The position numbers and the translations under genes are program-made. 64,000 nt of DNA from Nanobdellota archaeon (GTDB lineage: Archaea; Nanobdellota; Nanobdellia; Woesearchaeales; WJKV01), in assembly GCA_023133595.1 (NCBI GenBank), contig JAGLWF010000002.1:4905-68904 (forward strand). The letters are read 5' to 3'. The notes below the pieces were generated by a model. It did no database searches and had not been told where the DNA came from. It saw only the letters and a list, made by a program, of their open reading frames with translations. This document shows positions 7,347 through 52,871 of the stretch, in pieces; position 1 is the stretch's first letter, and every line of letters begins with the position of its first letter.

Positions 7347-7439
7347 GCATAGCACGCTACGCTTGTTCATTAAATCTTCTCATTAAGTCGAGTCTATTTT
7401 ACTAGTATATTTATTCGAGAACTACGCTGGGTGCTATGC
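7347..7439 (-). repeat. Dispersed inverted-repeat element type A, copy 1 (93 bp, MITE/REP-like)
   Basis: Ends GCATAGCAC...GTGCTATGC; its reverse complement aligns end-to-end with 11428-11520. Confidence 0.85.
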
Positions 7440-8309
7440 CAGAAAAAGAGAATTTAAGAAGGGAGACAGAAATACTGTCCGCCATCACCTCCCTTCCTGT
7501 TAATTCCGGTCCCTGTTTTTCCTTTTTCTACCAAAAATCATTCATCTCTAGTTGCGGTTTACTTAACGGAGTGACCCATTGCTGGCCCAACCCAAAATAT
7601 TTCAATCTAACTTGTTCGAGCGCCTTTGGTTTTTTTCGTTTTGCAGTTCAGGTCTGCTCTGATTCCTCACCTTATCCTACTGCTCCCCAGGATATAATCC
7701 AGTTTACTTGCGACTCCAGTGTCAATCAGAGTCAATGTTTTTTAGTTTTTGGCAAACTATGACAGTAATTTTTGAATTATATCGAACATGAAGTGTATTA
7801 CCTTGTGTTCATAACTAATAAGGCCTGCAAAAATTAACATTACAGACTTCACAATTGATGTTGATGTGAGTGTCATAAGCATAAAAAAAGAAGGTCCATT
7901 TCCGATCTGATAGGGGTTGAGGGGTGTTATCAGAAATAAGTTTTCACGGAAATGGAAAGGACCTCTTTTTTGAACGTGAAATGGCTCTCCTTTTCTAGAA
8001 TGGGGAGAGGGGTTGCGAGAGGCCATCTAGAAATATAATATCCCTTTAAGGAGAGCCGGAATGCGTATGATCGGATACAAATCTCAGGTTTGTATACGTT
8101 TTTGTATACTGAGATATAATAAGCTATCCTCATATATAAATGTACCTCTTTTGTATCCGTGTTGTGTGTTAAATGACATTTTTAATATAGATATCTCGGC
8201 TGGGATGGAAAAGAGGAGGGCAGGATTGGTTTTTCAGAGGCAAGATCAGGGGAATTAATACATATCTTTTCAGAAATAGAGACTAAAACTGTTATTTTAA
8301 ATCATAGAT

Positions 8310-10199
8310 TTAATCAGAAATCTCAAAAAATTCCTTGATCCTGTCAACATAGAGCTGGGTGATTTTCAGGTTCATATCCTTGGGAAAGACTTTATGATAA
8401 TTGCCCCATGTGAATCTCCTATCCAGGAATATGATCACGCCTTTGTCTGTTTCTGTCCGGATACAACGGCCAGCTCCCTGCAGACAACGACTCATTGCAG
8501 GCAAAGAATAACCATAATCCCATCCCTTCTTGAACTTCTCATCATAATAAGAGATCAGTTTATTTGTCTCAAGATCAGGAACTGATAATGGGATGCCCAC
8601 AACAACAACACATTTCAGAAAATCACCTGGAAGATCAATGCCTTCTGCAAAAGAGCCAGACACAGCACCCAACAAAACAGCACCAGTATCAGCATATTCT
8701 TTGTATTTCTCCAGCATCTCCTGTTTTTCTCTTTTAGTCATCTCTGGCTCTTCAAGAAATGTTGTTTTTTTGCACCTGTTCAGGAAATATTCATATATCT
8801 TGTCACGCAAAAAATAGCTTGGAAAGAATAATGCACTGTTTCCAGGAACCAAGTTTGTGATATCAGCCAATATTGCTGCGATCTCATTGAACATCTCAGG
8901 CGAACGTTCATTATACTTTGTTGTTGTCTTGGGAATAACCATTGCCAATCTATTTTCAACTTTGAATGGTGACTTGTACGGCTTCAACTCAGTATTTTCT
9001 GGAAAGCCTAACAAATCATTATACATGTCCAATGGTTCAAGTGTTCCAGACATGGCGATCGTAGAATAAGATTCATTTATCATTGCAGCTGTTATCAAGG
9101 AAGGATCCAGGCATCGGTAAGATAATTCAACCTTATCCTTTCTCTTCTGCAGTATCCGCACAAAACCAAAATCATCCCCTTTCCAGTTCTCTAAGAATGT
9201 TGCTATGATGCCGACAAAAGAACGTTCTTTTTGCTCACGGATATCGTCAGCAATAAACTCAAGATCAGCAATCAGCTGTTCATAATCAGAAGAAGTTTCA
9301 GCCTCGACATTTGCGATAAAAGTTTTCTTGTCAATCATTTTCTCTTTGGTCTTCTCTTCATCTTTTTCTTCAAAAGTATCACAAAACCCGTCTAATACAT
9401 CTTTCACACCTTTGATTATAGCACAAGTCTCTTTGTAGTCAAACTTTTCAGCCTCTTTCAGAGCTGCGCTCAAGACAAAAGACGAGAGTTTTGAAGTCAT
9501 GAGATCACGCACACGGCCAGGCAGGTTGTGCCCTTCGTCTATTATTATGATGGCATTTGCAAGATGTTTTTCATTGCGGTTAAAGAAATGCTGTCTTATT
9601 GTAGGATGCAATATGTGAAAATAATCTGCGATAATCACCTTGGACTTTTTCCCCAATAAAGCAGATAGTTCATAGGCGCACAATTTTTCTTCTTTGCATA
9701 TCTCAATTATCTTATCAGAATGGCAAGGACCCATGCGTTCCAAATCTCTCATGACTTTCTCAGCTTTAACTGTTCCAGTCCCTTCAGACTTTTTAGTGTT
9801 CAGGTAAAACTCGCACCTGCGGGATTGAACCTGTTTCCTGCAGAACTCCTGGAATTGTCCAGAGACAAAGTTCTCAACACCAGGCATAGAGCACATCCAT
9901 TGTTTGCCGATAAAATCAACAGCTGTAAACTCCAGATCATACTTCTCCTTTATTAGCTTCAAAGTATCAATAACAATCCTATGCTGCGTATGCCTGGGAG
10001 TTATAAAGAAGATAGTCTTGCCTCGCTCCAGAGCAAACTTCAGAGCAGGACCTAGAGTAGCAACAGTCTTTCCGATCCCAGTCGGAGCATGTATCAGCAT
10101 ATGTTTCTTCTCTTTTAAACAACGAGCCACATCCTCCAGCATAGAAGACTGTTCATCACGAATCTTTTCAAATGGAAATAAAAAATCTGCCCCCTCCAT
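8310..10199 (-). CDS. XPD/Rad3/DinG-family Fe-S DNA helicase
   Basis: Q motif, APTGIGKT, four Fe-S Cys, DEGH, MSGTL, EGIDLP and QGAGRCIR motifs. Confidence 0.93.
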   Translation of the reverse strand: MEGADFLFPFEKIRDEQSSMLEDVARCLKEKKHMLIHAPTGIGKTVATLGPALKFALERGKTIFFITPRHTQHRIVIDTLKLIKEKYDLEFTAVDFIGKQWMCSMPGVENFVSGQFQEFCRKQVQSRRCEFYLNTKKSEGTGTVKAEKVMRDLERMGPCHSDKIIEICKEEKLCAYELSALLGKKSKVIIADYFHILHPTIRQHFFNRNEKHLANAIIIIDEGHNLPGRVRDLMTSKLSSFVLSAALKEAEKFDYKETCAIIKGVKDVLDGFCDTFEEKDEEKTKEKMIDKKTFIANVEAETSSDYEQLIADLEFIADDIREQKERSFVGIIATFLENWKGDDFGFVRILQKRKDKVELSYRCLDPSLITAAMINESYSTIAMSGTLEPLDMYNDLLGFPENTELKPYKSPFKVENRLAMVIPKTTTKYNERSPEMFNEIAAILADITNLVPGNSALFFPSYFLRDKIYEYFLNRCKKTTFLEEPEMTKREKQEMLEKYKEYADTGAVLLGAVSGSFAEGIDLPGDFLKCVVVVGIPLSVPDLETNKLISYYDEKFKKGWDYGYSLPAMSRCLQGAGRCIRTETDKGVIIFLDRRFTWGNYHKVFPKDMNLKITQLYVDRIKEFFEISD

Positions 10200-10223
10200 A
10201 AACCAAGAAGAAAATCCGAACTA

Positions 10224-10808
10224 TTAAAATGTTTTTATTGCTGTTGTACCAGCCATCTGCTCTAATATGCCAATATAGTCCCTGCAACTGTCAGAATAAA
10301 GACCGTCAACCACAACAGCTCCCTTATTACGGATCTCCATAAAAATCTGAGGGATGCCGTTGCATACAATGTCAAAGTAGATCATTGTATCATCCTCATC
10401 AGTTCTATTAAAAGTTATAACATCATCATGATCGAACTGTGTATCTGATACGACTTCTGTAAGATGGCGTGGAAAAACTTCAACCTCTTCATCAGGCAAT
10501 TCCTCTCTAAGATTCAGAATGACTTGATATCTATCATTGTAGATACTCTCGTCTTCCTGCCAGTCCTCCAGTCTGCTGGCCCTGATAAGTGCAACACGTT
10601 CCTTGATAATAGGATATCGCTTCCCGTATATTTCAGAAAATAAATCATTATTAAATTCTCTTCGGTTTCGTACAAGCTGTTTGCTTGCTTTCAGCTTCAA
10701 ATCCATAATCCATCGTGGAAAAAAATGCTTCTTATAAGTTTCCCAAGGATGAAAAGTTTTAAGATGATAGGTAAGACGTCTAATTCCAGACTCAATTTCA
10801 TCTGTCAT
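10224..10808 (-). CDS. Hypothetical protein (paralog of the adjacent gene)
   Basis: Long ORF sharing motifs with 10844-11377. Confidence 0.7.
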   Translation of the reverse strand: MTDEIESGIRRLTYHLKTFHPWETYKKHFFPRWIMDLKLKASKQLVRNRREFNNDLFSEIYGKRYPIIKERVALIRASRLEDWQEDESIYNDRYQVILNLREELPDEEVEVFPRHLTEVVSDTQFDHDDVITFNRTDEDDTMIYFDIVCNGIPQIFMEIRNKGAVVVDGLYSDSCRDYIGILEQMAGTTAIKTF

Positions 10809-10843
10809 ATGATACAAATAGTCAAAGAAATTTATAAAGCTTG

Positions 10844-11377
10844 TCAGAGGCCTGCTGTCTCTCTCAAAACCTCTATATAATTATGGCTCAGATTTTGACC
10901 TGCTTCTAAGTTGTCCAGCAAGATGATATTCTGCGCAATAGTCATTGCATGCAAAAACTGGTCTCTATGATATATTTGATATGCTAACAAGGTCTGGTCT
11001 GGATCCCGCAGTTCCTTAATTGAAAAATCTGAAGCTCGGGCTTGTTCATAGTAAATGCAAAGAACAGACACAAAATGTTCTGGAAAGATTCTCAATTCTT
11101 CTTCACATAATTCTTCATCAAGAGTGATTTCAACATATGGTTGATCTTGCTGGACTATTTCCTCTGCATTCCCCAGATGATTCCTGATCACTGCAATCTT
11201 TTCTTCTCCAGTTGCACATTCGATCATGTCAAGACGGAATTCAAGAGCAAGCTGATCCAGTTTTTCCTTGTTCGCACGAATAAAATCATCCTGGGATCTA
11301 GGCAAATAATGATACCTGTATATAGACCAGGCGTCGTTCAGTTCAATAGGTTTTCCAAGCATTATCATAACAGACAT
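10844..11377 (-). CDS. Hypothetical protein (paralog of the adjacent gene)
   Basis: The track ORF extends into repeat A2; the likely start is 11377 or 11362, just behind a TATA box at about 11400. Confidence 0.7.
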   Translation of the reverse strand: MSVMIMLGKPIELNDAWSIYRYHYLPRSQDDFIRANKEKLDQLALEFRLDMIECATGEEKIAVIRNHLGNAEEIVQQDQPYVEITLDEELCEEELRIFPEHFVSVLCIYYEQARASDFSIKELRDPDQTLLAYQIYHRDQFLHAMTIAQNIILLDNLEAGQNLSHNYIEVLRETAGL

Positions 11378-11427
11378 AAGAGAATCCACATCCAGTCCAT
11401 ATATAAAACTTATCTGTATATGAACAT

Positions 11428-11520
11428 GCATAGCACCTAGCGTAGTCTTATAGTAAACGATCAAGTAACATAGACTCGGTTTAATGATAAGATTTAATGA
11501 GCTAACGTAGCGTGCTATGC
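11428..11520 (+). repeat. Inverted-repeat element type A, copy 2
   Basis: GCATAGCACCTAGCGTAG...TAGACTCGG...CGTAGCGTGCTATGC, 93 bp. Confidence 0.85.
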
Positions 11521-11527
11521 ATATTCG

Positions 11528-11626
11528 AGCCATTGCTGCGTTCTGCTAGTTTTGCTCTTTGCTTTAGAAGCCGAGTCTATGCATCTCGCACAAAAAATCT
11601 GATAGCTGCACTTGGCAGCAATGGCT
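11528..11626 (-). repeat. Inverted-repeat element type B, copy 1 (99 bp)
   Basis: Ends AGCCATTGCTGC...GCAGCAATGGCT; similar to 24835-24933 and 52773-52871. Confidence 0.85.
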
Positions 11627-11698
11627 ATGCGCGTATATAGAGTCAAAACCTTTATATAGAGCATCAAACCCTGTAAACAACGAGGTCAATTATGCATA

Positions 11699-12727
11699 AT
11701 GATAAGCGAAAAGCAGTTGAAGGACATAAAAGACGAATTAGACCATTGCAAGAAGCCTATATTCTTTTTTCACGATGATCCAGACGGATTATGCTCATTT
11801 CTATTGATGTACAAATACAAAAGAGAGGGTAAAGGTATTGTTGTGAAAGCTATTCCAGAAATGAATGCTTTTTTCGCAAAGAAAGCTACAGAGTATAGTG
11901 CTGATAAAATATTTGTACTGGACATTGCAAGGATAAATGATTCTTTCTACAACTCTGTGAATGTTCCTATTGTATGGATCGACCACCACGACCCTCAGGA
12001 GCATCCTGCAAAAGTAAAATATTATAATCCACGGATACAAGATCCAGACGAGTACAGTCCAGTAGCTTACTGGGTCTACAAAGCATTGAAAGAATTTGAA
12101 TGGATTGCAGCAGCAGGCTGTATCGGAGATTTTTTCTATCCTCCGTTCATAGACAAGGTAAAAAAACAGTACCCGGACTTAGTCCCAAAAGAAGTTGACA
12201 ATATCACAACATTAAAATACGATACAAAACTAGGACGGATCGTCCGGATCTATGCATTCATCATGAAAGGAGGGACAAGCATGGTGATGAACTGTGTAAA
12301 AATACTTACACGGATGGATGATCCAAGAGAATTATTAGAAGGACAGACTTCACGCGCAAGATACGTGAAAAAACATTTTGACAGGATAGAGAAAGCATAC
12401 GATGAACTGCTGAAAGATGCACTGAAACAAAAGAAGAGAAAAAAATTATTTGTCTATACTTATGAAGAAAGCAAAATCTCATTGACAAAAGACCTGGCTG
12501 ACGAGCTTGCTGCAAGATTCCCGAACAAATTCGTCATTGTTGGCAGGGAAAAGAGCGGGGAGGTCAAGATGAGCCTCAGATATTCTCAAAAACCAATACC
12601 GCAGATACTTAAGAAAGCTCTTGCTGGTCTACAGGGATACGGAGCAGGCCATGCAAACGCAGGCGGATCGTGCGTGAGCATAGAGGATTTCGACATATTC
12701 TTAAAAAGGATAGAGGAAGAATTGTAA
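11699..12727 (+). CDS. DHH-family phosphoesterase (RecJ/NrnA-like) with DHHA1 domain
   Basis: HDDPDG, VLD, IDHH, GCIGD, and C-terminal SLR...GAGHANAGG. Confidence 0.88.
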   Translation: MISEKQLKDIKDELDHCKKPIFFFHDDPDGLCSFLLMYKYKREGKGIVVKAIPEMNAFFAKKATEYSADKIFVLDIARINDSFYNSVNVPIVWIDHHDPQEHPAKVKYYNPRIQDPDEYSPVAYWVYKALKEFEWIAAAGCIGDFFYPPFIDKVKKQYPDLVPKEVDNITTLKYDTKLGRIVRIYAFIMKGGTSMVMNCVKILTRMDDPRELLEGQTSRARYVKKHFDRIEKAYDELLKDALKQKKRKKLFVYTYEESKISLTKDLADELAARFPNKFVIVGREKSGEVKMSLRYSQKPIPQILKKALAGLQGYGAGHANAGGSCVSIEDFDIFLKRIEEEL

Positions 12728-12766
12728 AAGTTTATATATTGATTTCTTATTTGATCTCATGGGGAA

Positions 12767-14890
12767 ATGGACAGATTAGAACGCAGAGTTTTGGAATTTG
12801 TAGTTAGACATCCTAAAGGTACAGCTGCATTGGGCCTAGTAGTTGCATTTGGACAAATGGCAATGAGCGGCAATACTATAAGAGATCTAAAACCATCAAA
12901 CCTTAACTTTGCAGGAGCCTGCGCTCTTTACACCGGACTGACCCTGGCAAAAGATTATTGGTTAGGTGCCAGGGAGACAATCGAACCAAGGACAGATTCT
13001 TTGTTTCAGAAAGTTGTCACGGGGATAAGAAATAATCCAAAGATTCCAGCAGTTGCTGCAGGACTGGCACTTGGAGCCCAGTCTCTTGTGCTGCACCCCG
13101 GAGATTTTCCAAAAGCAGCATTCAATTATATTGTTGCGTTTGGATTAGGTTACTGGCTCTGTGAAACAAGCAAGCAGGAAGAACTTGCACGCAGAGCAGA
13201 GAAAAAAAGTAGAAAAGGATTAGCAGGAAAATTATTGGATATATATGACACAATACTAGAACATCCTAAGATTCCAGCTATTGGTGTTGCAGCCTACTGG
13301 GCTTTCAAATATTTACGTTTTGATCTTCCTCCAAAAGACCAGTTTACTCATCTTACTGCCTGGTGTTTTGTAACAGGTTTAGCTTCAGGAGCAGCTTATC
13401 TTGCAGGGTTAGGAATAGGAGGATTACTTCATACCTCCAGCCTTAATAAATTTAGATTAATGTATAAGAGATGGAGAGCAGAAAGAAAAGAAGATTATGA
13501 AAAAGCATCAGAGATCCAGGAAGAATTTTTAGAAACATCAATGCCGATACAAAAGAGATTAAAAGAAATGGCAAGACTTGCAAAATTTTATGCTCTTAAG
13601 GAAGATCTTCCAAGTGCAATGAATATAGCAAACGAGATGCTTGTTGTTCCAAAAAGTTATCCGGAAGTATCAAGTGCGTTAGATGTTCTGACAAACATGC
13701 TGAGTCCAGCAATCATAGAAAAAGAAAGGATGGTGAATGCTGCAAAAAGCTCGTTCAAGGAAGGAGGAGTTGAATTAGCATTACACTATTTCATGCAAAA
13801 AGATTATGAGAAATCAATCCAGGTTTGGGAAGATATAATCCCAAGAAGTTTTAACCCAGACTATACACGTCTTCTAAAAACACAAAATCTGAGATTAATG
13901 GAGATGCATGAAGAAGCAAATGCAGCCATAACTAGATTTATATCCAAAAACAGACAGTATTTCAAAACAAGGTTTGGGTCACTATTCAAAATTATTACTT
14001 TTGATCCTGAATCAGGGCTTGGAAATTTAATAGCAATAAAGACAGGAGTGCAGAAAAATCGTTATGTGACAGAATGTTTAAAGAGAGAGCATAATGTTTC
14101 AAGATATATCAACTTATGTCTCAGAAACCACTCTCCAGTTCCAATGGGACTGTATGATACTAAAGAAGCAACTTTCTATATGATGTCTCATCTTCGAGGA
14201 GAACCTCTAGGCGAACTTATAGACGAGGATAAAACAGTCCTGCGGCAATTGATGAGAGATTTTGCAACATTTCAAAAAAGGACTACAGAGAGCAGAGGCA
14301 AACTAAAAACATTGAAAATTGAGATTCCAAACTTATCAATACAGAATTGGGGTTATGACAAGATCCTGAAAAGATTGCGTACAGATGAACACGGTCTTTT
14401 AGATGCACTAAAAGAAATAGAAGTTCACATGCAGCATTTAACAATGTTGTTTTCAAACGGAGACCTGCACAGAGATAATGTTATACGAGGAAGAAATTAC
14501 TGTTTCCTTGATTTCGAGCGTTCATGTTTTACATGGCCGGCATTTGTCCTGTTTGGAATATATGAAGATCCCCGGAATGGAATTAATGGAAAAATGAAAA
14601 CCACTCTTATTAACGATTATCTCGAAGAATTAAATTGTGACAGAACTATAATCTCAAGAGATCAGTTTGATCTTGCTTACGATCTGATATACAGTCCAAG
14701 GATGCTCGCGACAGTAGCAATGTTCCATGATTATGCTAAAAGAGATTCACGATTCCTAGATTCTGCAAAAAGTGCATTAAGAAAATTAGATGAACATTCA
14801 CCGATCTCAAGCCCTGCAAAAGAGTTCAAAGATGCTGCAACAGATTTTGTCTATAGAACAGGATGTCTTGAACAGTACATTGCCTCTTAA
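12767..14890 (+). CDS. Multi-TM protein with TPR-like region and C-terminal APH/choline-kinase-like phosphotransferase domain
   Basis: About 6 N-terminal hydrophobic helices, helical middle region, IAIK, GDLHRDN and LDFE kinase-fold motifs. Confidence 0.72.
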   Translation: MDRLERRVLEFVVRHPKGTAALGLVVAFGQMAMSGNTIRDLKPSNLNFAGACALYTGLTLAKDYWLGARETIEPRTDSLFQKVVTGIRNNPKIPAVAAGLALGAQSLVLHPGDFPKAAFNYIVAFGLGYWLCETSKQEELARRAEKKSRKGLAGKLLDIYDTILEHPKIPAIGVAAYWAFKYLRFDLPPKDQFTHLTAWCFVTGLASGAAYLAGLGIGGLLHTSSLNKFRLMYKRWRAERKEDYEKASEIQEEFLETSMPIQKRLKEMARLAKFYALKEDLPSAMNIANEMLVVPKSYPEVSSALDVLTNMLSPAIIEKERMVNAAKSSFKEGGVELALHYFMQKDYEKSIQVWEDIIPRSFNPDYTRLLKTQNLRLMEMHEEANAAITRFISKNRQYFKTRFGSLFKIITFDPESGLGNLIAIKTGVQKNRYVTECLKREHNVSRYINLCLRNHSPVPMGLYDTKEATFYMMSHLRGEPLGELIDEDKTVLRQLMRDFATFQKRTTESRGKLKTLKIEIPNLSIQNWGYDKILKRLRTDEHGLLDALKEIEVHMQHLTMLFSNGDLHRDNVIRGRNYCFLDFERSCFTWPAFVLFGIYEDPRNGINGKMKTTLINDYLEELNCDRTIISRDQFDLAYDLIYSPRMLATVAMFHDYAKRDSRFLDSAKSALRKLDEHSPISSPAKEFKDAATDFVYRTGCLEQYIAS

Positions 14891-18162: not shown

Positions 18163-18167
18163 CTTAG

Positions 18168-20672: not shown

Positions 20673-20735
20673 TTATTTCTTCTTTATCAGATTCTCGCCA
20701 GTCATCTCTTTTGGTTTTTCTATGCCTAAAAGGAA
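20673..20735. repeat. 63-bp direct repeat (duplicate of the gpmI 3' end), att-like
   Basis: Identical to 21966-22028. Confidence 0.95.
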
Positions 20736-21965: not shown

Positions 21966-23495
21966 TTATTTCTTCTTTATCAGATTCTCGCCAGTCATCT
22001 CTTTTGGTTTTTCTATGCCTAAAAGGAAGAGTATGGATGGTGCGACATCACCCAGTCTGCCGTCCTTCACTTTGCATTTGTAGAAATTATAGATAATAAA
22101 GTCAACAGGATTCTTTGAATGCTGTGTCAGCATGTTTCCTTCTGCATCAATCATGTATTCTGCATTGCCGTGGTCAGCTGTTATCACAGCGCAGCCATCT
22201 AATTCCTTGATCTTCTCCAGAACTTTACCCACACATTCGTCAACAACTTCCACTGATTTGATAGTCGCGTCAAAATCACCTGTATGAGCGACCATGTCTG
22301 TATTTGCATAGTTCAGGACAACAAGATCATACTTATGCATCACTTCCAGCAATTGTTCTGTGATCTTATACGCGCTCATCTCAGGAGTCTCGTCATAAGT
22401 TGCTACTTTCGGGGATGGTATCACTATCCGATCCTCGCCCGGCAACGCCTCTTCATTCTCGTCATTGAAAAAGAATGTGACATGCGCATATTTCTCAGTC
22501 TCTGCAATGCGCAGTTGTTTCATATTGCTCTTTGCAACCATAACACCTAAAATATTCTTCAATTCCTGCACATGGTACGCAACACAGACATTAGGAATAT
22601 CATTCAGTTTTGCATAATAGTCTGCAAACGGAACATATACAATATTCTTTTTCTTCCTCTCAAACTTGTCAAACACAGGATCAACTAGAGCGTGCGACAG
22701 CTGGCGCGAACGGTCATAGCGGTAATTGAACAATATAATAGAATCATTGTCCTGCATACCAGAATAGTCTCCAATGATTGTCGGTGAGATGAATTCATCC
22801 CGTTCTTTATTCTCATAAGCCATCTCCACAGCATGTTTCATTGTCTGCGCTTTCCTGCCTTCTGCATTTACAATGCAATTGTATGCTTTCTCAGTGCGTT
22901 CCCAGCGATTGTCACGGTCCATTGCAAAATATCTTCCGCATAATGTTGCAAATGTGGCATCAACTTCTAATTTTTTTATCTCTTCCTGCAGTTCTTCAAG
23001 ATATCTGTTCACTGACTTAGGCAGACTGTCCCTGCCGTCGCTGATTATGTGAAGCTTGATTTTCTTCAATCCATTTATCAGGACAAGATGAAGAAGAGCA
23101 TAGAGGTGCGTGTTCATTGCATGCACACCTTCATCCTGCAGAAGGCCTGCGATATGGAGTGTTGAGTCATGCGTTTTGCAGTTCTCGACAGCTGCAAGCA
23201 ATGCCTTGTTCCTTTCAAACTCACCGCTCTCAATCTCTTCATTGATCCCTGTCGCCATCTGTTTTACAACACGGCCGGCACCTAAATTAAGATGACCGAC
23301 TTCACTGTTTCCCTGCAGGCCAGGAGGCTGGCCAACATCAACACCAGAAGCTTTCAATTGTGAGTGCGGGCACTGTTCAAAGAGGACGTCGTGCACAGGT
23401 GTATGCGCCTGTGCAACTGCATTGCCTTCTATATCTTTAGAGATACCCCATCCATCCCGGATAATCAGAACAACTGGGCCTTTTACTAATTTCAT
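21966..23495 (-). CDS. gpmI: 2,3-bisphosphoglycerate-independent phosphoglycerate mutase (bacterial type)
   Basis: DGWG, GNSEVGH, GRYFAMDRD.RW, ETEKYAHVTFF and TADHGNAE motifs. Confidence 0.96.
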   Translation of the reverse strand: MKLVKGPVVLIIRDGWGISKDIEGNAVAQAHTPVHDVLFEQCPHSQLKASGVDVGQPPGLQGNSEVGHLNLGAGRVVKQMATGINEEIESGEFERNKALLAAVENCKTHDSTLHIAGLLQDEGVHAMNTHLYALLHLVLINGLKKIKLHIISDGRDSLPKSVNRYLEELQEEIKKLEVDATFATLCGRYFAMDRDNRWERTEKAYNCIVNAEGRKAQTMKHAVEMAYENKERDEFISPTIIGDYSGMQDNDSIILFNYRYDRSRQLSHALVDPVFDKFERKKKNIVYVPFADYYAKLNDIPNVCVAYHVQELKNILGVMVAKSNMKQLRIAETEKYAHVTFFFNDENEEALPGEDRIVIPSPKVATYDETPEMSAYKITEQLLEVMHKYDLVVLNYANTDMVAHTGDFDATIKSVEVVDECVGKVLEKIKELDGCAVITADHGNAEYMIDAEGNMLTQHSKNPVDFIIYNFYKCKVKDGRLGDVAPSILFLLGIEKPKEMTGENLIKKK

Positions 23496-24754: not shown

Positions 24755-24818
24755 CTAGACACCTCTTTTTTGTTTGTTATGTTTTTGTTGTTTAAAAACA
24801 TTGTGATTATGAGTATGT

Positions 24819-25004
24819 GCATAGCACCAAGCGTAGCCATTGCTGCCAAGTGCAGCCTTCTGATTTTCTCATACTACATACATAGAGTCGTCTTCTAAAA
24901 CAAAAAACCAAACTAGCGGAACGCAGCAATGGCCATAAAACAGTCAAGGTTACTAGACTCGTCTTCTGGATACAATCTTTGATCAATAGCGAAGCGTGCT
25001 ATGC
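24819..25004 (+). repeat. Type A element copy 3, interrupted by nested type B copy 2 (24835-24933)
   Basis: A ends GCATAGCACCAAGCG / GAAGCGTGCTATGC enclose the B ends AGCCATTGCTGC / GCAGCAATGGC. Confidence 0.85.
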
Positions 25005-25334
25005 ACGTGTGATTATGATGGGGATAAAAAAAAGAAAAAAAAGGGGGAAAATTCCAAAGTAGAATTTTCCTTCCGACTGCTTGCCATAGTTCTGAGTGTT
25101 GAAGGCTTTTTGGGATATAGGGCCTTTACGATTCTCAAAACTATTCACAGTTGGATGAAAAGCTGCACGAGATAGCTGGCTGCTATTCGCTGGCTGCCTA
25201 CCAGTTGGCCAACTGGCTAGCACAAATTCCACCCATTCTGGAATACCCCCGAAAAATATGAGGTCATTTGCATTCTCACATCTAGTTTGTTCCCATTCTC
25301 GGGTTCGTGTTTCAACTAGTGTTTTGTATCTCAT
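24999..25334 (-). other. Possible small CDS or gene remnant resembling an internal domain of the giant protein
   Basis: ATGA overlap with the giant gene stop; shares EN...L.FFGGIP and GPISQ with giant-gene region 43850-44020. Confidence 0.4.
25025..25072 (-). terminator. Hairpin plus long U-tract, probable terminator of the giant-gene transcript
   Basis: GGAAAATTC-7 nt-GAATTTTCC stem followed on the minus strand by a T-rich tract. Confidence 0.55.
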
Positions 25335-45724: not shown

Positions 45725-46000
45725 ATCTATACACCCTATACCCCAATTAAAACCGGTAGTGAAGTTAGAATAAAAAGATGCATTTGCACTGAAGAGTACT
45801 CCTAATATTTTTTATGTCAAGAATCGCCAGTCAAATAGACTGGCAGTATGAACGTTGTTCATAGACTATCTAGGCGGTTCTTGAGCACGCTCAGGAATTC
45901 CTTGACCTTCGCCATCCAATGGATATTTCAACCCCTCCTCAATAGAGGAGAGGAGTTCCTGACGTTTCAATTTAATTATACGTAGGTGTAATTCGTATGT

Positions 46001-46186
46001 GCATAGCACCAAGCATAGCCTTTGAATAAACGCGCCAATAATATAGAATCGTTTTTATGAGCAATATGCTAAACCGCAACCAAAATTTCAAACTATTATA
46101 CTTGCGGTTTAGTATTACGAAGCCGCAACAAGTTAGTAATAATATTTGCGGCTGAGTATATTATAATCGTGCAAAGCGTGCTATGT
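46001..46186 (+). repeat. Type A element copy 4 with a ~94-bp internal insertion (46068-46161)
   Basis: Near-identical to 52674-52765 once the insertion is removed. Confidence 0.85.
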
Positions 46187-46207
46187 GCATACGAGAATAG
46201 GCTATAA

Positions 46208-46504
46208 TTATAAATATCCTAATTTCTTAAGATATATTCTGAGTTCTTTATATTCCTTTGCTCTGTCAAGGATACAAAGGATTTTTACAAAAGGTTTATC
46301 TACAAGATAAATCACTCTTTTCTCTTTGCGATTATCTTCAAATCTTATTCTGAATAAAAATAAACCATATCCATGAATTCGTTTATATCTAAATGGATTT
46401 ATTTTAATTATTTTAAGTTTTTTATCTAGAAGTTTGGCAGCTTCATTACTGAGATCATCAAGTTGTTTTAAGAAAAATTTAGTTGGTTTTAATGTAAAAA
46501 CCAT
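46208..46504 (-). CDS. RelE/ParE-like type II toxin
   Basis: Basic 98-aa protein with F.K.L..L...I..NP.R.K.I.G...FRIR...RVIY. Confidence 0.78.
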   Translation of the reverse strand: MVFTLKPTKFFLKQLDDLSNEAAKLLDKKLKIIKINPFRYKRIHGYGLFLFRIRFEDNRKEKRVIYLVDKPFVKILCILDRAKEYKELRIYLKKLGYL

Positions 46505-46509
46505 TCTAT

Positions 46510-46755
46510 TTATTTTCTCCTTAGCTTCTTAAATAATTCTTCTTCTGTTCCATAGAGATTTTTTTTCTCACTAATTTCAGCAAGTTTTCTAACTAAAGCT
46601 AATTCTTCTTTAGATATTTCTGGTTCATCAAACAGCTTTTCTCTTACAATTTCCTTTATAAATTCTTGCACAGTACTAAATCCATGCTCTTCAGCATACG
46701 TCTTGGCTGTGCTAAGGATTTTTTCTTGAAACCTTACATTTATTTGTGTGTTCAT
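46510..46755 (-). CDS. Probable RHH-type antitoxin
   Basis: N-terminal beta strand QINVRF, two helices (EFIKEIVR), acidic tail; directly upstream of the toxin. Confidence 0.72.
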   Translation of the reverse strand: MNTQINVRFQEKILSTAKTYAEEHGFSTVQEFIKEIVREKLFDEPEISKEELALVRKLAEISEKKNLYGTEEELFKKLRRK

Positions 46756-46758
46756 ATT

Positions 46759-46774
46759 GGTATCTATAGATACC
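46759..46774. promoter_or_regulatory. Perfect 16-bp palindrome, probable TA operator
   Basis: GGTATCTATAGATACC between the TATA (about 46781-46790) and the antitoxin start. Confidence 0.65.
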
Positions 46775-47048
46775 TGAAACTATATAAATGTTTCGGTTTT
46801 TTGTGCCCATACATTATTAATTTATTTTATAATTTTTCTATCTGCTTTTTTCTACATCTGACTACATACAAACCCTATTTTTGAAAATTTAGTAAAGTCA
46901 TCAAATTGGACAAAGTTATTCCGAAAGGTACGGAATTTAGGGAAAATCTTACCCCTACTTTTCTTTGAAAAATTAAATATTTGCAGAAAGGTAAGGGCAA
47001 ACTTTAGAAATTTTATTGGTTCTCAAAAAACTCTTATGGTTTCGGAAA

Positions 47049-47297
47049 TTACTGCTCGTTTTTATGGTACAAACTTAGAAAGACAATTTCATCCTTTTCC
47101 TTAAAATAAACATAGGCCAGCCTGAATGGTTTGATATAAACTTCTCTTGTTCCTTTTCTGACATTTCTCAGGGGTTTTCCAATTTCTGGATTGTCTTTGA
47201 TTTTAGAAAACTGTTTAATTATTTTCTCTTTCAGACCATTATCTTTTATTTTCGAAAAAATCTTCCGAAAGACAGGATTAAAAGAAACTTTCACCAT
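47049..47297 (-). CDS. RelE/ParE family type II toxin
   Basis: I..NPEIGKPLR...G.R.V.I.PFRL.Y. Confidence 0.85.
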   Translation of the reverse strand: MVKVSFNPVFRKIFSKIKDNGLKEKIIKQFSKIKDNPEIGKPLRNVRKGTREVYIKPFRLAYVYFKEKDEIVFLSLYHKNEQ

Positions 47298-47557
47298 TTT
47301 TTAGCTTTTTCAATAAATTCATCAAAATCCATTTTGATGAATTCCCCTCTTTCATAAGCTTTCAAGGCTTCTTCTGTTTTCCTGGCGAATTCCAGATCTT
47401 CTTTTAGGTTCTCATCTAGTTTACTGGCCTTCTTCAGGATTAATTGTCCATTGTTCTTGATAACAACAATTTTATCTCCTTCATGAAGCCCTCTCCTCAT
47501 CTCAACAGGTATAACAATCTGGCCTTTGGAACTCATTTTGGTTATAGCAATATCCAT
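47291..47557 (-). CDS. AbrB/MazE/SpoVT family antitoxin
   Basis: KMSSKGQIVIP.EMR.....GD. Confidence 0.9.
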   Translation of the reverse strand: MDIAITKMSSKGQIVIPVEMRRGLHEGDKIVVIKNNGQLILKKASKLDENLKEDLEFARKTEEALKAYERGEFIKMDFDEFIEKAKKW

Positions 47558-47569
47558 TTTTAATCACCA

Positions 47570-47587
47570 AGTAAGATTAGTCTTACT
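47570..47587. promoter_or_regulatory. Inverted repeat, probable AbrB operator
   Basis: AGTAAGA-ttag-TCTTACT adjacent to the TATA (about 47591-47598). Confidence 0.6.
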
Positions 47588-47718
47588 AACTATATAAACC
47601 TTTCGGGTTTTTTTGATGAGAATAATCAGAGAAAATAATAAATAAGCACAAAAAATTATTTAACATCTATTTTTTGCAACAATAATGTTTAAATAGAAGC
47701 AAGGGTTTTCAATTAATT

Positions 47719-47766
47719 CCACAACATCTTGTGTATTCTAGACCAACTCTACGCAAGGGGTTGTAT
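47719..47766 (+). promoter_or_regulatory. NrdR boxes (strong box 47719-47734; weak box 47751-47766)
   Basis: ccaCaAcATcTtGtgt fits the consensus acaCwAtATaTwGtgt; second degenerate copy 32 bp downstream; TTTAAATA TATA box at about 47688. Confidence 0.72.
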
Positions 47767-47835
47767 TACTTGAGAGGTGTAAAATTAGCATCTTTAGAAA
47801 CTAGCGAGAGCTATTAACTACATGAGGTAAGATAA

Positions 47836-48288
47836 ATGAGATGTCCGTACTGCTCTGCCACAGAATCAAAAGTTGTAGACAAGAGAGAGACAACTAACAA
47901 CGACAGCACACGAAGAAGAAGAGAATGTCTCAAGTGCAGCAAGCGTTACACAACTTATGAACGCACTGAAAACTTCAATGTCACAATAATCAAGAAAGAC
48001 GGCAGAAGAGAAGCATTTGACAGGGAAAAAGTTCTGAAAGGAATATTGAGGGCGTGTGAAAAAAGACCGGTTCCAAGAGAAACTATTGAGAACGGAATCG
48101 ACATGATCGAGACAAAAATAAAAAATCATGACAACAGCGAAGTCCCAAGCAAAATCATTGGAGAGGAGATAATGACCTTTCTGGCAGAACTGGACAAGAT
48201 CGCTTACATCAGATTCGCATCTGTATACAGGGAATTCACAGATGTGAACACATTCATCGAGGAGATAAACAAGATTCTGAAAAAATAA
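47836..48288 (+). CDS. nrdR: Transcriptional repressor NrdR
   Basis: MRCPYC...V.D.R...RRRREC..C..R.TTYE Zn ribbon, ATP-cone, AYIRFASVYR.F. Confidence 0.96.
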   Translation: MRCPYCSATESKVVDKRETTNNDSTRRRRECLKCSKRYTTYERTENFNVTIIKKDGRREAFDREKVLKGILRACEKRPVPRETIENGIDMIETKIKNHDNSEVPSKIIGEEIMTFLAELDKIAYIRFASVYREFTDVNTFIEEINKILKK

Positions 48289-48303
48289 AGGTGAGGGAAA
48301 AAA

Positions 48304-50904
48304 ATGGTACGAATAGAAGCAGATTATGCAACACTTAAAGAGGCACTTATTGGATTTCAACAAGCAAAAGCAAAAGAGCTTGGTAGAACTTGTCCAATAC
48401 GGACAGGAAATTTCGCTTACAAAGTTGGAGAGGTGCAGGATCTCGAAGAGGAAAGAGCTATTTCGCTTACAGATAAATTAAAGGGAGAATATGATAGTTT
48501 ATCAGAACCTAATTTAAATCCGATCTCAGTAGCTGTTCTCGAAGACAGGTATCTAAAAAAGACTGAAAAAGGAAGGTTTTTAGAAAAACCTAAAGATTGT
48601 CTTTTTCGGGTTGCTCGAGTGGCAGCAATGGTTGAAGCACAGTATGGAAAAATAGACGAAGAAGTTGTAGATTACTTCAAAAGTTTCTATAATGTAATGG
48701 CAAATTGTGATTTCATGCCTAATTCTCCAACATTGATGAATGCTGGAATGGCCCTGGGGCAATTAAGTGCTTGTTTTGTACTGCCTATAGAGGATGAGAT
48801 TGCAAACGAATTAGAAGAAGGAGGAATCTTTGACACTGTCAAAGCAACAGCAATTGTGCACAAATCAGGGGGAGGAACTGGATTTTCGTTCAGCAGAATA
48901 AGGCCTCACGATGATTTTGTAAAGACTACGTATGGAAAATCCAGTGGTGTGCTTTCATTCATGAAAGTTTTTAACAGTGCAACAGAAGAAATAAACCAGG
49001 GAGGTTTCAGGCGCGGAGCAAACATGGGTGTTCTTCGGGTTGATCATCCGCAGATAATTGAATGGATAAATGCAAAGACAGATGGAACCTCTTTTAATAA
49101 TTTCAATATTTCAGTTGCCGTTACTGATAAATTCCTAGAAGCCTACAAAACTGATGGCGAATACGAACTAGTTAATCCTAGAAATGGAAAAGTTACTGGA
49201 AAATTAAGAGCAAGAGAAGTAATTGCTTTGATTGAGAAGAATGCGCACGAATACGGAGAACCAGGAATCATGTTCCTCGATAGGATGAACAGGGACAATC
49301 CAACTCCGCATATAGGAGAAATAGAAAGCACAAATCCATGCGGTGAACAGCCACTGCTTCCACACGAAGCATGCAACCTGGGTTCAATCAATATAGACAC
49401 TTGTGTAACAAAAGAAGGAGAAATTGATTATGAGAAACTAGGAAGATTAGTAAGAACAAGTGTAAGATTCCTAGATAATATTATTGATGCAAGCAATTAT
49501 CCAAAGTATGAAATTGCAGAAATGGTTGGTGGAAACAGGAAGATTGGTATGGGTATCATGGGTCTTACTGATGCATTGATCAGAATGGGTATTCCCTACG
49601 ATAGTAAGGAAGCTGTTGAAGAAGCAGGAAGGATAATGAAATTTGTCCAGGAAGAAGGACATAAAGCATCACAAGAACTTGGAAAAGAAAAAGGAAACTT
49701 TTCTAATTTCAAGGGAAGTGTCTACGACGGAAAAGTAGAGTATATGAGAAATGCAACAGTTACAACAATCGCTCCAACAGGCAGTATTAGCTTGATAGCA
49801 AATAATACTTCCAGTGGAATAGAACCTTTATTCAGGGTCCAGGCTCAAAGAACCATTACTGGATCAGATACAACCCTTGTCTATATGAGTCAGGCTTTTG
49901 AGTACTTAATGAGAAAAGCAGACTTAAAACCTGAAGATTTCACAAACCAAATAGTAAAAAATAATGGAAGTATACAAGGGATAGAGGGAATTCCAGAGGA
50001 GATTCAGAGGCTTTGCAAGATCTCAGGAGAAATTCATCATGATTGGCATTTTGCAATGCAGGAAGCAATCCAAGAACAAACAGATAATGCAGTATCAAAG
50101 ACAGTTAACTTTTTTGCTGATGAACCACGAGAAAAAGTCGCTGAACTCATTCAACGAGCAATAAATAGCAAAGTCCTGAAAGGACTTACTGTTTATAGAG
50201 AAGGCTCAAGAGAGGATGTTATTAGTTCTGGAAAAGGGATTGAAGAGTTAGTCTTCTTTAACATTGAAAAACCAGGTCTTCTGATGGAAAAGCCATTGGT
50301 CTGGGGTTTCAAGATAGAGATAGGGTCAGATGAGAAAATCCATCCATTCATGAGCTGCAGTTTCTACAGGCACAAAGAGACTGGAAAGATATATGCCATG
50401 CCTTACGAGATATTCCAATTAAAGAGGCCTATCGGCCATAAAGAGAATGTCCGTTTTGCGCAGAGTGGTGTGGAACGTTCAAGAATCCTTGTCGGAGCGG
50501 ATCCTGATTTTGCAGAATTCATCGAGGATCTGAAAAGTGTCAGGGAGACAGAATGGGGTCTTGGTCCTAAGAAAACATTTGGCCAGGATTATTCAGTAGG
50601 TGTTGCACTGGAATACGTCCTTAGAACATTAGGAATCATTGGCAGCGACAAGACAACAGGCAGGATCGTAAATCTGATCCAGAAATCCGACCTTGAGCCG
50701 ATCACAGACATGGATGAGAAGAGGGAGATCCAGAAAAGATTCTTTCATCTGCGAGGAAATTTCAAGGGAGCAAAAGAATTAAAATACAATATCACTGAGG
50801 GTATTAAGAAGAAAGACAATTGTCCTATATGTGGAAAACCATTAGTCCACGACGGCGGTTGCCACGGCGGAAGATGTCCTGACGGGCATGTTGATTCGTG
50901 CTAA
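48304..50904 (+). CDS. nrdJ: Adenosylcobalamin-dependent (class II) ribonucleotide reductase
   Basis: PNSPTLMNAG, SACFV, GGFRRGANM, TNPCGEQPL, IAPTG, D.AVSKT.N; C-terminal Cys cluster; no beta subunit nearby. Confidence 0.92.
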   Translation: MVRIEADYATLKEALIGFQQAKAKELGRTCPIRTGNFAYKVGEVQDLEEERAISLTDKLKGEYDSLSEPNLNPISVAVLEDRYLKKTEKGRFLEKPKDCLFRVARVAAMVEAQYGKIDEEVVDYFKSFYNVMANCDFMPNSPTLMNAGMALGQLSACFVLPIEDEIANELEEGGIFDTVKATAIVHKSGGGTGFSFSRIRPHDDFVKTTYGKSSGVLSFMKVFNSATEEINQGGFRRGANMGVLRVDHPQIIEWINAKTDGTSFNNFNISVAVTDKFLEAYKTDGEYELVNPRNGKVTGKLRAREVIALIEKNAHEYGEPGIMFLDRMNRDNPTPHIGEIESTNPCGEQPLLPHEACNLGSINIDTCVTKEGEIDYEKLGRLVRTSVRFLDNIIDASNYPKYEIAEMVGGNRKIGMGIMGLTDALIRMGIPYDSKEAVEEAGRIMKFVQEEGHKASQELGKEKGNFSNFKGSVYDGKVEYMRNATVTTIAPTGSISLIANNTSSGIEPLFRVQAQRTITGSDTTLVYMSQAFEYLMRKADLKPEDFTNQIVKNNGSIQGIEGIPEEIQRLCKISGEIHHDWHFAMQEAIQEQTDNAVSKTVNFFADEPREKVAELIQRAINSKVLKGLTVYREGSREDVISSGKGIEELVFFNIEKPGLLMEKPLVWGFKIEIGSDEKIHPFMSCSFYRHKETGKIYAMPYEIFQLKRPIGHKENVRFAQSGVERSRILVGADPDFAEFIEDLKSVRETEWGLGPKKTFGQDYSVGVALEYVLRTLGIIGSDKTTGRIVNLIQKSDLEPITDMDEKREIQKRFFHLRGNFKGAKELKYNITEGIKKKDNCPICGKPLVHDGGCHGGRCPDGHVDSC

Positions 50905-51176
50905 GAATAAGCAATCCCAAAACCGTTGAGGTCTCCGCGGTAAATCTCTTTTTCTATTTTTATATCTTTTACTTCTGCGTTAGACGGTCCCTGCCGGCAC
51001 AATGAGATAAGTTCATTTATTTTCCTTTCTTCGCCTTCGACCAGGATTTCGACCTGGTTATGGTCCTTGTTCCGCACCCATCCCTTGAGATCGAGATGGT
51101 TTGCCTTCCTGTAAACAAATCTTCGAAATAAAACTCCCTGAACAATACCAGTAAGAAAGATATGACATCTGATCAT
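50901..51176 (-). CDS. acyP: Acylphosphatase
   Basis: G.VQGV.FR...L.GWV.N...V....EG...GP..A.V. Confidence 0.93.
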   Translation of the reverse strand: MIRCHIFLTGIVQGVLFRRFVYRKANHLDLKGWVRNKDHNQVEILVEGEERKINELISLCRQGPSNAEVKDIKIEKEIYRGDLNGFGIAYS

Positions 51177-52615
51177 CGTGATTGTTTCATTCGAAGGCTG
51201 ACAGGAGAAGAAAACACTATCTTTGCAATTTTGTCTTTGTCAAACCTTGCTTCAGCAGCTGGCAATCTAAGATCGCCCATGACTTTCAGTTTTGCTTTTA
51301 TCCTGTATGTGATTATCCTTTCATCTTTTCCGTACAGATCACCCAGCTCCCAGATCAGGACCTCGCCTGCTTCCATTGTCTTTATTTTTGTCGGACGGAT
51401 AGAACCAAGGATATCTTTTGGAACATACGACGCTATCTTTGGTATTTTATCACGGATCTTCACGTTTCTTAATGTTTGATTGGTTGCGTTCTTGAAACTA
51501 AGGATGATTTTCGCGCCTGTCAAGGTGCCGTCTTCTGGACTGAAGATCGGTTTTGCCTTCTTTGTTATGACAATGTCTGGCTTGAAATGTTGATAGATGA
51601 AGACAAGAAGCAGTATCGCGATTATTGTCAATAAGATGTATCGATAATTATAAGTAACAACAACCCTGGTTGCCTGTTCTGGATACAAGCTGAGGTCCCA
51701 TTGGTATGCTTTAGAGATAATAGGCACTTTAGGTTTTGTCGAGGTCACAACGCGCCCGAAAAATGAGACTGGAACCCGAAACTGTTCTGTCTTCTTGATA
51801 TTTGCAGGATTATCAATCTTGTAGGTCACTTTTTTCCTGAGAAAACTTTTGTCGACAACCTCTTTGATATTGAATGAGATGTCAGCATCAATGATTTCAT
51901 ACTCAAATTCTTTTGAAGTGATGACTTCATTATCAACAAGAAGCTTAATGTATAAAGTATCTGTCTGCGGCAAAGTATGTGAATCAAGATCAAAATTAAA
52001 TTTCAGGTCTGCTTTTTCGTACGGCCCCATTGGGATTGTCTTTTCTCCCTTGAAGAAATTAGAAGACACCTTTACCAATAACTCAGGGATATTAAGGCTG
52101 TTCTTGTTCAACAGATGGACATCTACTGTGAAGGGCTTGCTTGGATCTATCTTTTCTGGAAATTCTGGTGCAGGATCAACAACAACGCGCGGAAGATAGG
52201 TCACAAGATAGCCAGACGGATTGATTAAATGCACATTAAGATTATTTCTTATCTTGGTTCCTTCGCCTTCAACCTCTATGATTATCGTATATATCCCATA
52301 CCCAAGACCAGAACCTATTGCCCTGATAAAAAGATCCACTGTCTTTGTCATCCCTGGCCGCAGTTCAAATTGCGAATCTTTTATAGGTTTTGTGAGAACA
52401 GACCATTTGGTTGTGATTACATTAGGGGAGGTGACACTGAACCTTATCCTATTATTATCATTGTTCGCCACTGTAAGCTTGTATTGCGCGCTCTCGTTGC
52501 GAAGAATCCTGTCATTGACAGGAATTATATCCACGTCAAAACTTGCAGCAGAAACCACTGTAGCTAGAAGTAGCAGTAATATTGCACAGATTATACTCCC
52601 GACGAATAACTTCAC
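51173..52615 (-). CDS. Hypothetical membrane protein with Ig-like domains
   Basis: Signal peptide, beta-rich domains, internal TM helix, C-terminal DUF11/BatD-like domain (V.I.D.IP...W....L...ER.ITY). Confidence 0.75.
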   Translation of the reverse strand: MKLFVGSIICAILLLLLATVVSAASFDVDIIPVNDRILRNESAQYKLTVANNDNNRIRFSVTSPNVITTKWSVLTKPIKDSQFELRPGMTKTVDLFIRAIGSGLGYGIYTIIIEVEGEGTKIRNNLNVHLINPSGYLVTYLPRVVVDPAPEFPEKIDPSKPFTVDVHLLNKNSLNIPELLVKVSSNFFKGEKTIPMGPYEKADLKFNFDLDSHTLPQTDTLYIKLLVDNEVITSKEFEYEIIDADISFNIKEVVDKSFLRKKVTYKIDNPANIKKTEQFRVPVSFFGRVVTSTKPKVPIISKAYQWDLSLYPEQATRVVVTYNYRYILLTIIAILLLVFIYQHFKPDIVITKKAKPIFSPEDGTLTGAKIILSFKNATNQTLRNVKIRDKIPKIASYVPKDILGSIRPTKIKTMEAGEVLIWELGDLYGKDERIITYRIKAKLKVMGDLRLPAAEARFDKDKIAKIVFSSPVSLRMKQSR

Positions 52616-52673
52616 AATCTCACCCAGTCAGAGATATTAGACCGGTTTATATAAACTTTTCTTATTGTTGTGT

Positions 52674-52765
52674 GCATAGCACCAAGCGTAGCCTTTGAAT
52701 AAACGCACCAATAATATAGAATCGTTTTAATGAGCAATATTATAATCTTGCGAAGCGTGCTATGC
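52674..52765 (+). repeat. Type A element copy 5
   Basis: GCATAGCACCAAGCGTAG...GCGAAGCGTGCTATGC, 92 bp. Confidence 0.85.
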
Positions 52766-52772
52766 ACAATAG

Positions 52773-52871
52773 AGCCATTGCTGCGTTCCGCTCGCATTGC
52801 TTTTCGTTTTAAAAGCCGAGTCTACGTATCCAGTAGAAAAAATCAGAAAGCTGCACTTGGCAGCAATGGCT
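52773..52871 (-). repeat. Type B element copy 3
   Basis: Same ends and same position relative to A as at 11528-11626. Confidence 0.85.

Follow-up and report, generated by a model that had tools for sequence, protein, structure and literature searches.

The question raised by the stretch of DNA analysed here, a window of 64,000 nt (positions 4,905 to 68,904 of contig JAGLWF010000002.1, our contig C12, from a Nanobdellota archaeon of the order Woesearchaeales), is what the short repeats with inverted ends at five of its intergenic loci are and how they arrived there. The source genome, G000, comprises 1,369,550 bp and is 91.7% complete. The initial annotation distinguished two related types, A and B, and proposed either a non-autonomous mobile family, of the miniature inverted-repeat transposable element (MITE) or the repetitive extragenic palindromic (REP)/REPIN kind, or a multicopy structured noncoding RNA (ncRNA). 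We consider it highly probable that A and B are one family of non-autonomous DNA transposons, that is, MITEs. The five A and three B copies proposed for the window all lie where that annotation placed them, and repeat detection recovered them too, as direct and inverted repeats related to one another. Two of the A copies proved to be more than a plain A, since 24819-25004 is an A with a nested B and 46001-46186 carries a 94-nt insert. With the ends as redefined below, the features are as follows.

7341..7445, minus strand: solo type A element (core 7347-7439) with 15-bp inverted ends, one side partly decayed
11422..11526, plus strand: type A element, A half of a tail-to-tail A/B composite
11528..11636, minus strand: type B element including its outer A-type end ATGCGCGTAT; the composite is 11422-11636
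24805..24812, no strand: target-site duplication GATTATGA, left copy, 8/8 match to 25011-25018
24813..25010, plus strand: nested composite, type B (24835-24933) within type A after about A position 17
25011..25018, no strand: target-site duplication GATTATGA, right copy
45995..46192, plus strand: type A element broken by a 94-nt palindromic insert (about 46068-46161), no clear duplication
52647..52654, minus strand: TATA box of gene 51173-52615, just outside the composite's end and duplication
52668..52771, plus strand: type A element, A half of a tail-to-tail A/B composite
52773..52881, minus strand: type B element with outer A-type end ATGCACATAT; the composite is 52668-52881

The boundaries of A were set with a flank position profile built from 26 solo copies among 40 full-length A elements. 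The core first drawn for A (92-93 bp) held, and 6 nt more belong to the element on each side (GTAYGT at the left end, ACRTAC at the right end), giving an element of 104-105 bp with 15-bp inverted ends (GTAYGTGCATAGCAC and GTGCTATGCACRTAC). The six outer bases were considered as a target-site duplication under a GTAC/ACGT model, which was rejected because they behave as inverted and not as direct repeats. Inside the inverted end lies a 3-nt bulge, CAA in 24 of the 40 copies and CTA in 12, after which a heptamer GCGTAGC on the left stands opposite GCGAAGC on the right. Paired with each other, the two heptamers would give G-C, C-G, G.A, T-A, A.G, G-C and C-G, and compensatory changes were seen at the Watson-Crick positions of this pairing. 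The interior of A retains a central TAGACTCG-like motif and otherwise varies by subfamily; an RNAalifold consensus retained the terminal helices only, and single-sequence folds of the interior were mutually inconsistent. The bounds first given for B also stood, with the addition that its outer side carries an A-type end, GTATGTGCAT, followed by B's own AGC, so that the outer 13 bases of A are common to B. B has a further 9-bp inner stem, CATTGCTGC. Both types share a terminal stem, a 3-nt CAA-type bulge, GYGNAGC on the left against GCGNARC on the right, and the central TAGACTCG. This common design, already noted in the initial annotation, is real: the A and B profiles weakly match each other, indicating that the two are related.

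Across the whole genome, the 9-mer end words of A occur 46 (GCATAGCAC) and 48 (GTGCTATGC) times and the 11-mer end words of B 20 (GCCATTGCTGC) and 18 (GCAGCAATGGC) times, counts far above chance expectation, and 50 left/right pairs of A ends lie at most 600 nt apart. Iterated nhmmer searches at E<=1e-3 gave 61 A-profile and 40 B-profile matches; the strong ones (>55 bits), 46 A and 26 B, approximate the full copies in 1.37 Mb, and near-identical subfamilies (94-98% identity) are present among them. The arrangement of B was read from the list of units over its 26 strong copies. In about 15 cases an A stands tail-to-tail with the B at a distance of 7-9 nt, and in 4-5 the B sits inside an A, after about position 17 of the latter. 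One B forms a tandem with an A, and the remainder are solitary or beside A fragments. The nested architecture of 24813..25010 recurs at C6:22809 and C38:44249. The 94-nt insert of the 46001 copy was considered as a third repeat family and ruled out, as it occurs once in the genome. All window copies are intergenic, as first described; the open reading frame (ORF) 10844-11533, which runs over the A element at 11428, is an over-extended call with a TATA box and an ATG further in. Three contigs of G000 start within an A copy (C9:9-98, C25:13-104 and C34:18-107) with the same odd preceding letters (..AAGCTTTA), which suggests that the assembly broke at the repeat or folded back there as an artefact. 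The elements thus break assemblies and can also inflate ORF calls.

The 8-mers directly outside the 15-bp ends of A are direct repeats. In the 26 solo copies they matched at a mean of 6.19 of 8 positions, and 16 copies reached at least 7/8; at 12 other offsets, which served as the control, the means were 1.65-3.46 and only 0-1 of the 26 copies reached that level. The duplicated 8-mers have no common sequence. Duplications of 8 bp also surround whole composites, with all eight positions matching (GATTATGA, TACTTCAA, GGAGCGAT and TATTTTTT) at window 24805-24812/25011-25018, C12:126012, C16:13569 and C33:102067, and at 7/8 in several others. Since these duplications enclose entire composites, composites move as units; no convincing duplication was found around a lone B. 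Elsewhere in the window, the flanking 8-mers of the solo A at 7341..7445 match at only 3 of 8 positions, and the duplication at composite 11422-11636 is ambiguous (about 6/8).

Presence/absence polymorphism, which the initial annotation had named as a mark of mobility, was found at the composite at 52668-52881. Contigs from two public runs, X2 and X4, were compared over window 50900-54400. They skip 52665-52921, passing from 52664 to 52922 through 31 other letters that match the window's right flank, indicating a relative without the A-B composite at that site. This relative differs from the window at 281 of 1,763 flanking positions (about 85% identical), and A-like copies are present elsewhere among the X2 and X4 contigs. 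At C32:895, C23:45494 and metagenome locus L141 we found short relics in which a left end is joined to a right end.

The elements also keep a fixed position relative to genes. Gene positions were taken from a crude ORF caller (1,277 ORFs, 92% coverage). Of 73 start-facing flanks, 11 place the core end exactly 50 nt from the start codon and 24 place it at 47-55 nt; stop-codon distances are spread from -6 to 48 nt and beyond. Outward from the element, a flank consists of the end, the 8-bp duplication, about 6 nt that often include RAAAG, and then TTTATATA; from the known layout of archaeal promoters, we read this arrangement as a putative transcription factor B (TFB) recognition element (BRE) followed by a TATA box. 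Allowing at most one mismatch, 34 of 103 flanks have TTTATATA beginning 12-16 nt past the end, with 21 beginning at +14, against a background of 2.9% (6,411/222,303) of all intergenic positions in both directions. Twenty-eight of 56 units have a TATA flank, six of them on both sides; genome-wide, 128 of 1,261 genes have the TATA motif beginning at -30 relative to their start codon. On the other side of the element, the flank is in many cases the complement of an oligo-T run that follows the preceding gene. Within the window, composite 11422-11636 sits between two divergent genes and has a TATA box beginning 13-14 nt outside each end, and the TATA-like TTTTATAA begins 14 nt past the low-coordinate end of the solo A at 7341..7445. 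Adjoining promoters face outward, and elements are found in either orientation to them; among copies about 50 nt from a start codon the two orientations numbered 14 and 8 when counted by eye. An A/T-rich signal about 25 nt upstream of A, considered as a promoter of the element itself, turned out to be the outward-pointing promoters of neighbouring genes.

Whether this fixed geometry reflects targeting or the survival of harmless insertions is nearly balanced, and we lean towards targeting. The short linker between terminator and BRE counts for selection. The sharp mode at +14 counts for targeting, as does the same geometry in the distant family of genome G100 described below; moreover, since 8 bp are duplicated, smaller offsets, down to about 8, should also be harmless, yet they were not seen. 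In the mechanism that we propose, a transposase supplied in trans, an enzyme that we infer and did not find, would cut with an 8-bp stagger and so generate the 8-bp duplications. The 8 bp that immediately precede the BRE/TATA would be the integration site, which often falls between an oligo-T terminator and the promoter after it, and tail-to-tail or nested A/B composites would be mobilised as single units.

The distribution of the family was examined across the order. BLAST of one A copy against 40 relatives gave matches only in G004 and G006, members of the same family but of a different genus; both genomes, the basis of these matches and of 17 model matches in G004, are flagged as unpublished. 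No copy was found by BLAST in G001, which is of the same genus as G000 and 99% complete. Identical copies are present in public contigs L051, L056, L102 and L104, and real copies in a genome collection lie, among the matches listed, in contigs titled Candidatus Woesearchaeota archaeon. We also observed an A-like module at L017:1918-2022, in a contig of a metagenome-assembled genome labelled Methanosarcinales, which could be due to mis-binning or to a transfer involving a DPANN archaeon and a lineage that might serve as its host. A covariance model, for which 32 copies were used and 20 pairs were set by hand, was run on 151 genomes sampled from the order; the ~104-nt module was found in 11 of them, namely G000 and genomes of ten further families, and the other 140 had no match. 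Matches at E<=0.01 numbered 40 in G140, 49 in G009 and 12 in G100. The terminal arm sequences differ in these genomes; the parts conserved among them are a left CC-NN-GCG-N-AG-Y, a right R-CG-N-AGC-G and, in the centre, an A-rich TCG motif. G100 has the module embedded in an element of ~150 bp with outer inverted ends of its own, GGTTAAGTCAAG. Duplications of 8 bp flank these ends in 7 of 10 copies, and in 6 of those 7 a TATA-like box begins 12-15 nt past the end. G019 and G049 have outer repeats GGCTCTGTCAAG, which may resemble the ends of ISL3 or IS6; PF01610 and PF13610 are absent from both genomes. In G019 two modules stand tail-to-tail, as do the A/B pairs of G000.

The pairing of the arms was assessed in an alignment of 53 matches (A3), which was fitted to the model, includes 3 reverse-strand rows and is biased by the fit towards the structure of the model. 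In this alignment 90.0% of cells pair, compared with 67.7% in shuffles; both sides change in 19 of 20 pairs, in 244 such cells compared with 83 +/- 7 in shuffles; and G.U occupies 2 of about 450 cells in the inner 9 arm pairs. Nine inner arm positions were then compared within genomes, in 10 copies per genome.

G140: arm identity 0.78; Watson-Crick 89/90; core identity 0.81
G009: arm identity 0.60; Watson-Crick 90/90; core identity 0.93
G100: arm identity 0.40; Watson-Crick 66/68; core identity 0.87

There were no G.T pairs at these positions in any of the three genomes. The outer bases of the heptamers covary (position 25 with 85: UA 36, CG 17, unpaired 0), which favours pairing of one heptamer with the other over two separate mini-hairpins, and the heptamers of other genomes read GCGNAGT and ACGNAGC. 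We picture the core as a closing stem, a 3-nt bulge, GCGNAGY facing RCGNAGC (G.A / N.N / A.G between Watson-Crick pairs) and the central A-rich TCG motif, which would act as a cis-acting DNA structure for mobilisation or for tolerated maintenance and not as an RNA gene.

Two groups of observations weigh against classification as MITEs. The first concerns the elements themselves. Ten of the 26 solo A copies lack a good duplication, and in G140 a clear duplication was seen by eye in only 1 of 10 copies. Ends that vary, stay complementary without wobble and enclose a conserved core are atypical of DDE-type MITEs; neither sequence-specific transposase binding nor RNA helices usually produce such ends. 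They could result from selection for a hairpin or cruciform in the DNA, or from copying of the arms from each other. All 40 modules of G140, spread over 9 contigs, have a single orientation per contig. On its contig C4 the GC skew is positive in 12/12 20-kb bins and the 10 modules are all on the minus strand, and on C8 the skew is negative in 7/7 bins and the 7 modules are all on the plus strand; on both contigs tested the orientation is therefore opposite to the sign of the skew, and local gene direction is mixed. In G000, B follows this strand rule in 22 of 27 copies but A does not (24 of 51, paired copies included). The GC skew of these two contigs is in itself very strong and uniform in sign, independently of local gene direction, from +0.04 to +0.25 over 240 kb of C4 and from -0.08 to -0.32 over 140 kb of C8.

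The second group concerns the enzyme. Of five features of MITEs the elements show four, namely short non-coding multicopy units, inverted ends, a duplication of fixed length and presence/absence polymorphism; the fifth, a cognate autonomous insertion sequence (IS), was not found. The longer copy with the same ends around a transposase that the initial annotation had envisaged was looked for, and no longer copy with these ends exists anywhere in the assembly, nor did self-BLAST of the genome reveal a multicopy IS. Nine Pfam transposase families were searched in total, eight of them in G000. Six-frame searches of G000 gave no match to PF03050, PF01609, PF00872, PF01610, PF12762, PF00665, PF13610 or PF01797, and each of these searches gave matches in its control genomes. 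Other module-rich genomes, seven in all, lack PF01610 (five searched), PF13610 (four) and PF01797 (four), and none of the nine families was found in any genome in which it was searched. Exact-pattern scans gave 0 matches in viral sequences and 17 loci in metagenomes, namely 4 ordinary copies, 1 relic and otherwise chance matches, with no long element. A 16-mer scan of the genome collection gave at least 109 stretches, mostly due to chance, and at least 6 real copies; no long element was among the matches listed. Two ORFs beside a G009 copy, considered as a transposase, are a condensation-domain protein and a Na/H exchanger. The only transposon-related gene found in G000, where the other long repeats are unrelated proteins, is a TnpB-like ORF outside the window (C12:118501-119871; PF07282, 2.6e-17; Cas12f1-like TNB domain; 456 aa), with a second copy at C6:1748-3187 that is 85% identical, decayed and split into two ORFs. 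It adjoins no element, the nearest copies being at C12:110093 and C12:124975. The autonomous partner of the MITEs may simply be unassembled, the genome being incomplete and repeats assembling badly, or could reside in a host, plasmid or virus.

Among the alternatives, retention of the copies for a host function at each locus, as a terminator/promoter insulator, a platform for a regulator or a single-stranded DNA signal, with mobility as their origin only, survives best. We regard it as unlikely though worth keeping in view, and it is compatible with a MITE origin. The core and the perfect arm pairing persist where interiors are only 41-47% identical, the flanking duplications in G140 are mostly no longer visible by eye, copies are placed precisely between the oligo-T stretch and the BRE/TATA, and orientation in G140 follows the chromosome strand. 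The copy-free G001 (by BLAST) and the 140 of 151 genomes of the order that lack the module imply no essential function. Rather less likely is a new archaeal transposition system, in which an enzyme outside the nine families, possibly encoded elsewhere, would recognise the hairpin/cruciform core and not the end sequence, would integrate at the upstream edge of a BRE/TATA bound by TATA-binding protein (TBP) and TFB, and would depend on the replication strand, with the arms templated on each other. Such templating would explain arms that evolve fast and are nevertheless perfectly complementary.

A multicopy structured ncRNA gene family, perhaps a protein-binding RNA spread like a short interspersed nuclear element (SINE), in which the stem, the internal G.A loop and the central motif would belong to the RNA, is very improbable. 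The strong covariation of the closing helix in A3, the perfect C-G or T-A covariation of positions 25 and 85 and the conservation of the core in 10 other families of the order would all suit an RNA, as would mismatches that read G.A in one strand orientation only. The 8-bp duplications and the empty site, however, denote DNA insertion; copies lie in both orientations to neighbouring genes and promoters (14 versus 8 by eye), adjacent promoters face away from them and they have no promoter of their own. Moreover, G.U is nearly absent from the inner arm pairs, which is unusual for an evolving RNA helix, and the interiors fold inconsistently. Rfam searches of the whole window at gathering scores gave 2 tRNAs only, and the eight copies gave 0 matches at E<=5.

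Slightly less probable still are hairpins of the REP/REPIN kind or derived from IS200/IS605 (palindrome-associated transposable elements, PATEs), moved as single-stranded DNA by a Y1 (HUH) transposase. Arm pairing kept whatever the sequence, inverted A/B pairs that resemble REP doublets, and heptamers that fit a DNA mini-hairpin motif (PMC13037366) speak for this explanation. The TnpB-like gene at C12:118501-119871 does as well, but no element adjoins it, and PF01797 (Y1) is absent from all five genomes searched (G000, G004, G009, G100 and G140). Orientation tracks the strand of replication skew in G140 (40/40) and for B in G000 (22/27), and IS200/IS605 elements show a comparable strand bias, but solo A copies show none. 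Fixed 8-bp duplications are found in two distant families, and the Y1 transposases of the IS200/IS605 and REP/RAYT families are known not to make such target duplications. Of the kinds first proposed, the MITE is supported, the REP/REPIN kind fails and the ncRNA is unlikely. C/D box, kink-turn, bulge-helix-bulge (BHB) intron, attC and hammerhead/twister identities were rejected by eye, as the boxes are unconserved, the G.A pairs lie away from the bulge, there is one bulge and there are no arrays.

Several other features of the window were recorded. Rfam reports a 130-nt tRNA at 53690-53819 on the plus strand (54.2 bits; not reported by ARAGORN), probably an intron-containing gene, next to tRNA-Lys 54202-54278. 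In the X2 and X4 contigs, 82 nt of window 53823-53906, just after this intron-bearing tRNA, are swapped for 510 other letters, a further insertion/deletion difference from the relative. On the minus strand, 25331-45724 is one ORF of 6,797 aa with internal repeats of ~300 nt that are 64-85% identical (families D1-D4); an ORF of 17,311 aa was called by the crude caller on contig C36 of G000. Two neighbouring ORFs on the minus strand share, at their 3' ends, a perfect 63-nt direct repeat (20673-20735 and 21966-22028, 1,293 nt apart).

The genomes of DPANN archaea are tiny and densely packed with genes, and it is assumed that they contain few mobile elements; in this 1.37-Mb genome, a single orphan element family accounts for about 8 kb. 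That a hairpin core is conserved across the order, with arms free to change yet perfectly paired, points to an enzyme, not found in these searches, that recognises DNA by its structure. According to the census of prokaryotic MITEs in PMC11602168, one Woesearchaea genome ranks with the most MITE-dense archaeal genomes, and MITEs of this group are thus already known in bulk. Full-text literature searches gave no account of this core, of archaeal promoter-edge insertion or of Woesearchaeota repeats, and together with the negative Rfam comparison this agrees with the first impression that the family had not been described.

Among known systems, the closest are the archaeal and other prokaryotic MITEs, such as those of Sulfolobus (SM1-SM4), Halobacterium and Haloquadratum, which are, as reviewed in PMC10969869, likewise small, non-coding and multicopy, with terminal inverted repeats and fixed-length duplications, and are intergenic, mutually nested and present in tens of copies per genome. 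The family described here differs from them in that no cognate IS was found, that an internal asymmetric hairpin core is conserved and not the ends, that the ends vary within a genome yet stay complementary, and that the insertion point is fixed to the putative BRE/TATA. The Correia elements of Neisseria duplicate a TA dinucleotide. They too are orphan MITEs, of about 100-200 bp, that lie directly upstream of genes and have no known host transposase; as the same review describes them, these bacterial elements have a central IHF site, a hairpin-forming transcript, promoters of their own and a TA target. By comparison, the archaeal elements stand outside the promoter, have an 8-bp duplication and show no promoter of their own. 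REP/REPIN sequences with their REP-associated tyrosine transposases (RAYTs) and the PATEs of IS200/IS605 are similar as extragenic hairpin repeats with inverted doublets and strand bias, and differ from our elements in the target duplications and the lack of Y1 in all five genomes searched.

Both heptamers of type A, GCGTAGC and GCGAAGC, fit the DNA mini-hairpin GCGNAGC, of which natural occurrences at single-stranded DNA priming sites and at the hairpin promoters of phage N4 are reported in PMC13037366. In other genomes the heptamers depart from that motif (GCGNAGT/ACGNAGC), with outer bases covarying as T-A or C-G. For the position at the promoter edge, an analogy is offered by the Ty3 retrotransposon, which integrates at RNA polymerase III start sites through TFIIIB. 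Ty3 stands at a fixed distance from a promoter complex of the TBP/TFB type (Brf); it is a eukaryotic long terminal repeat (LTR) retroelement with an integrase, whereas targeting in the present family is a reading of its geometry. If the A/B elements are indeed targeted, they would provide a prokaryotic case of integration guided by a promoter complex and, at the same time, a natural marker for archaeal promoters.

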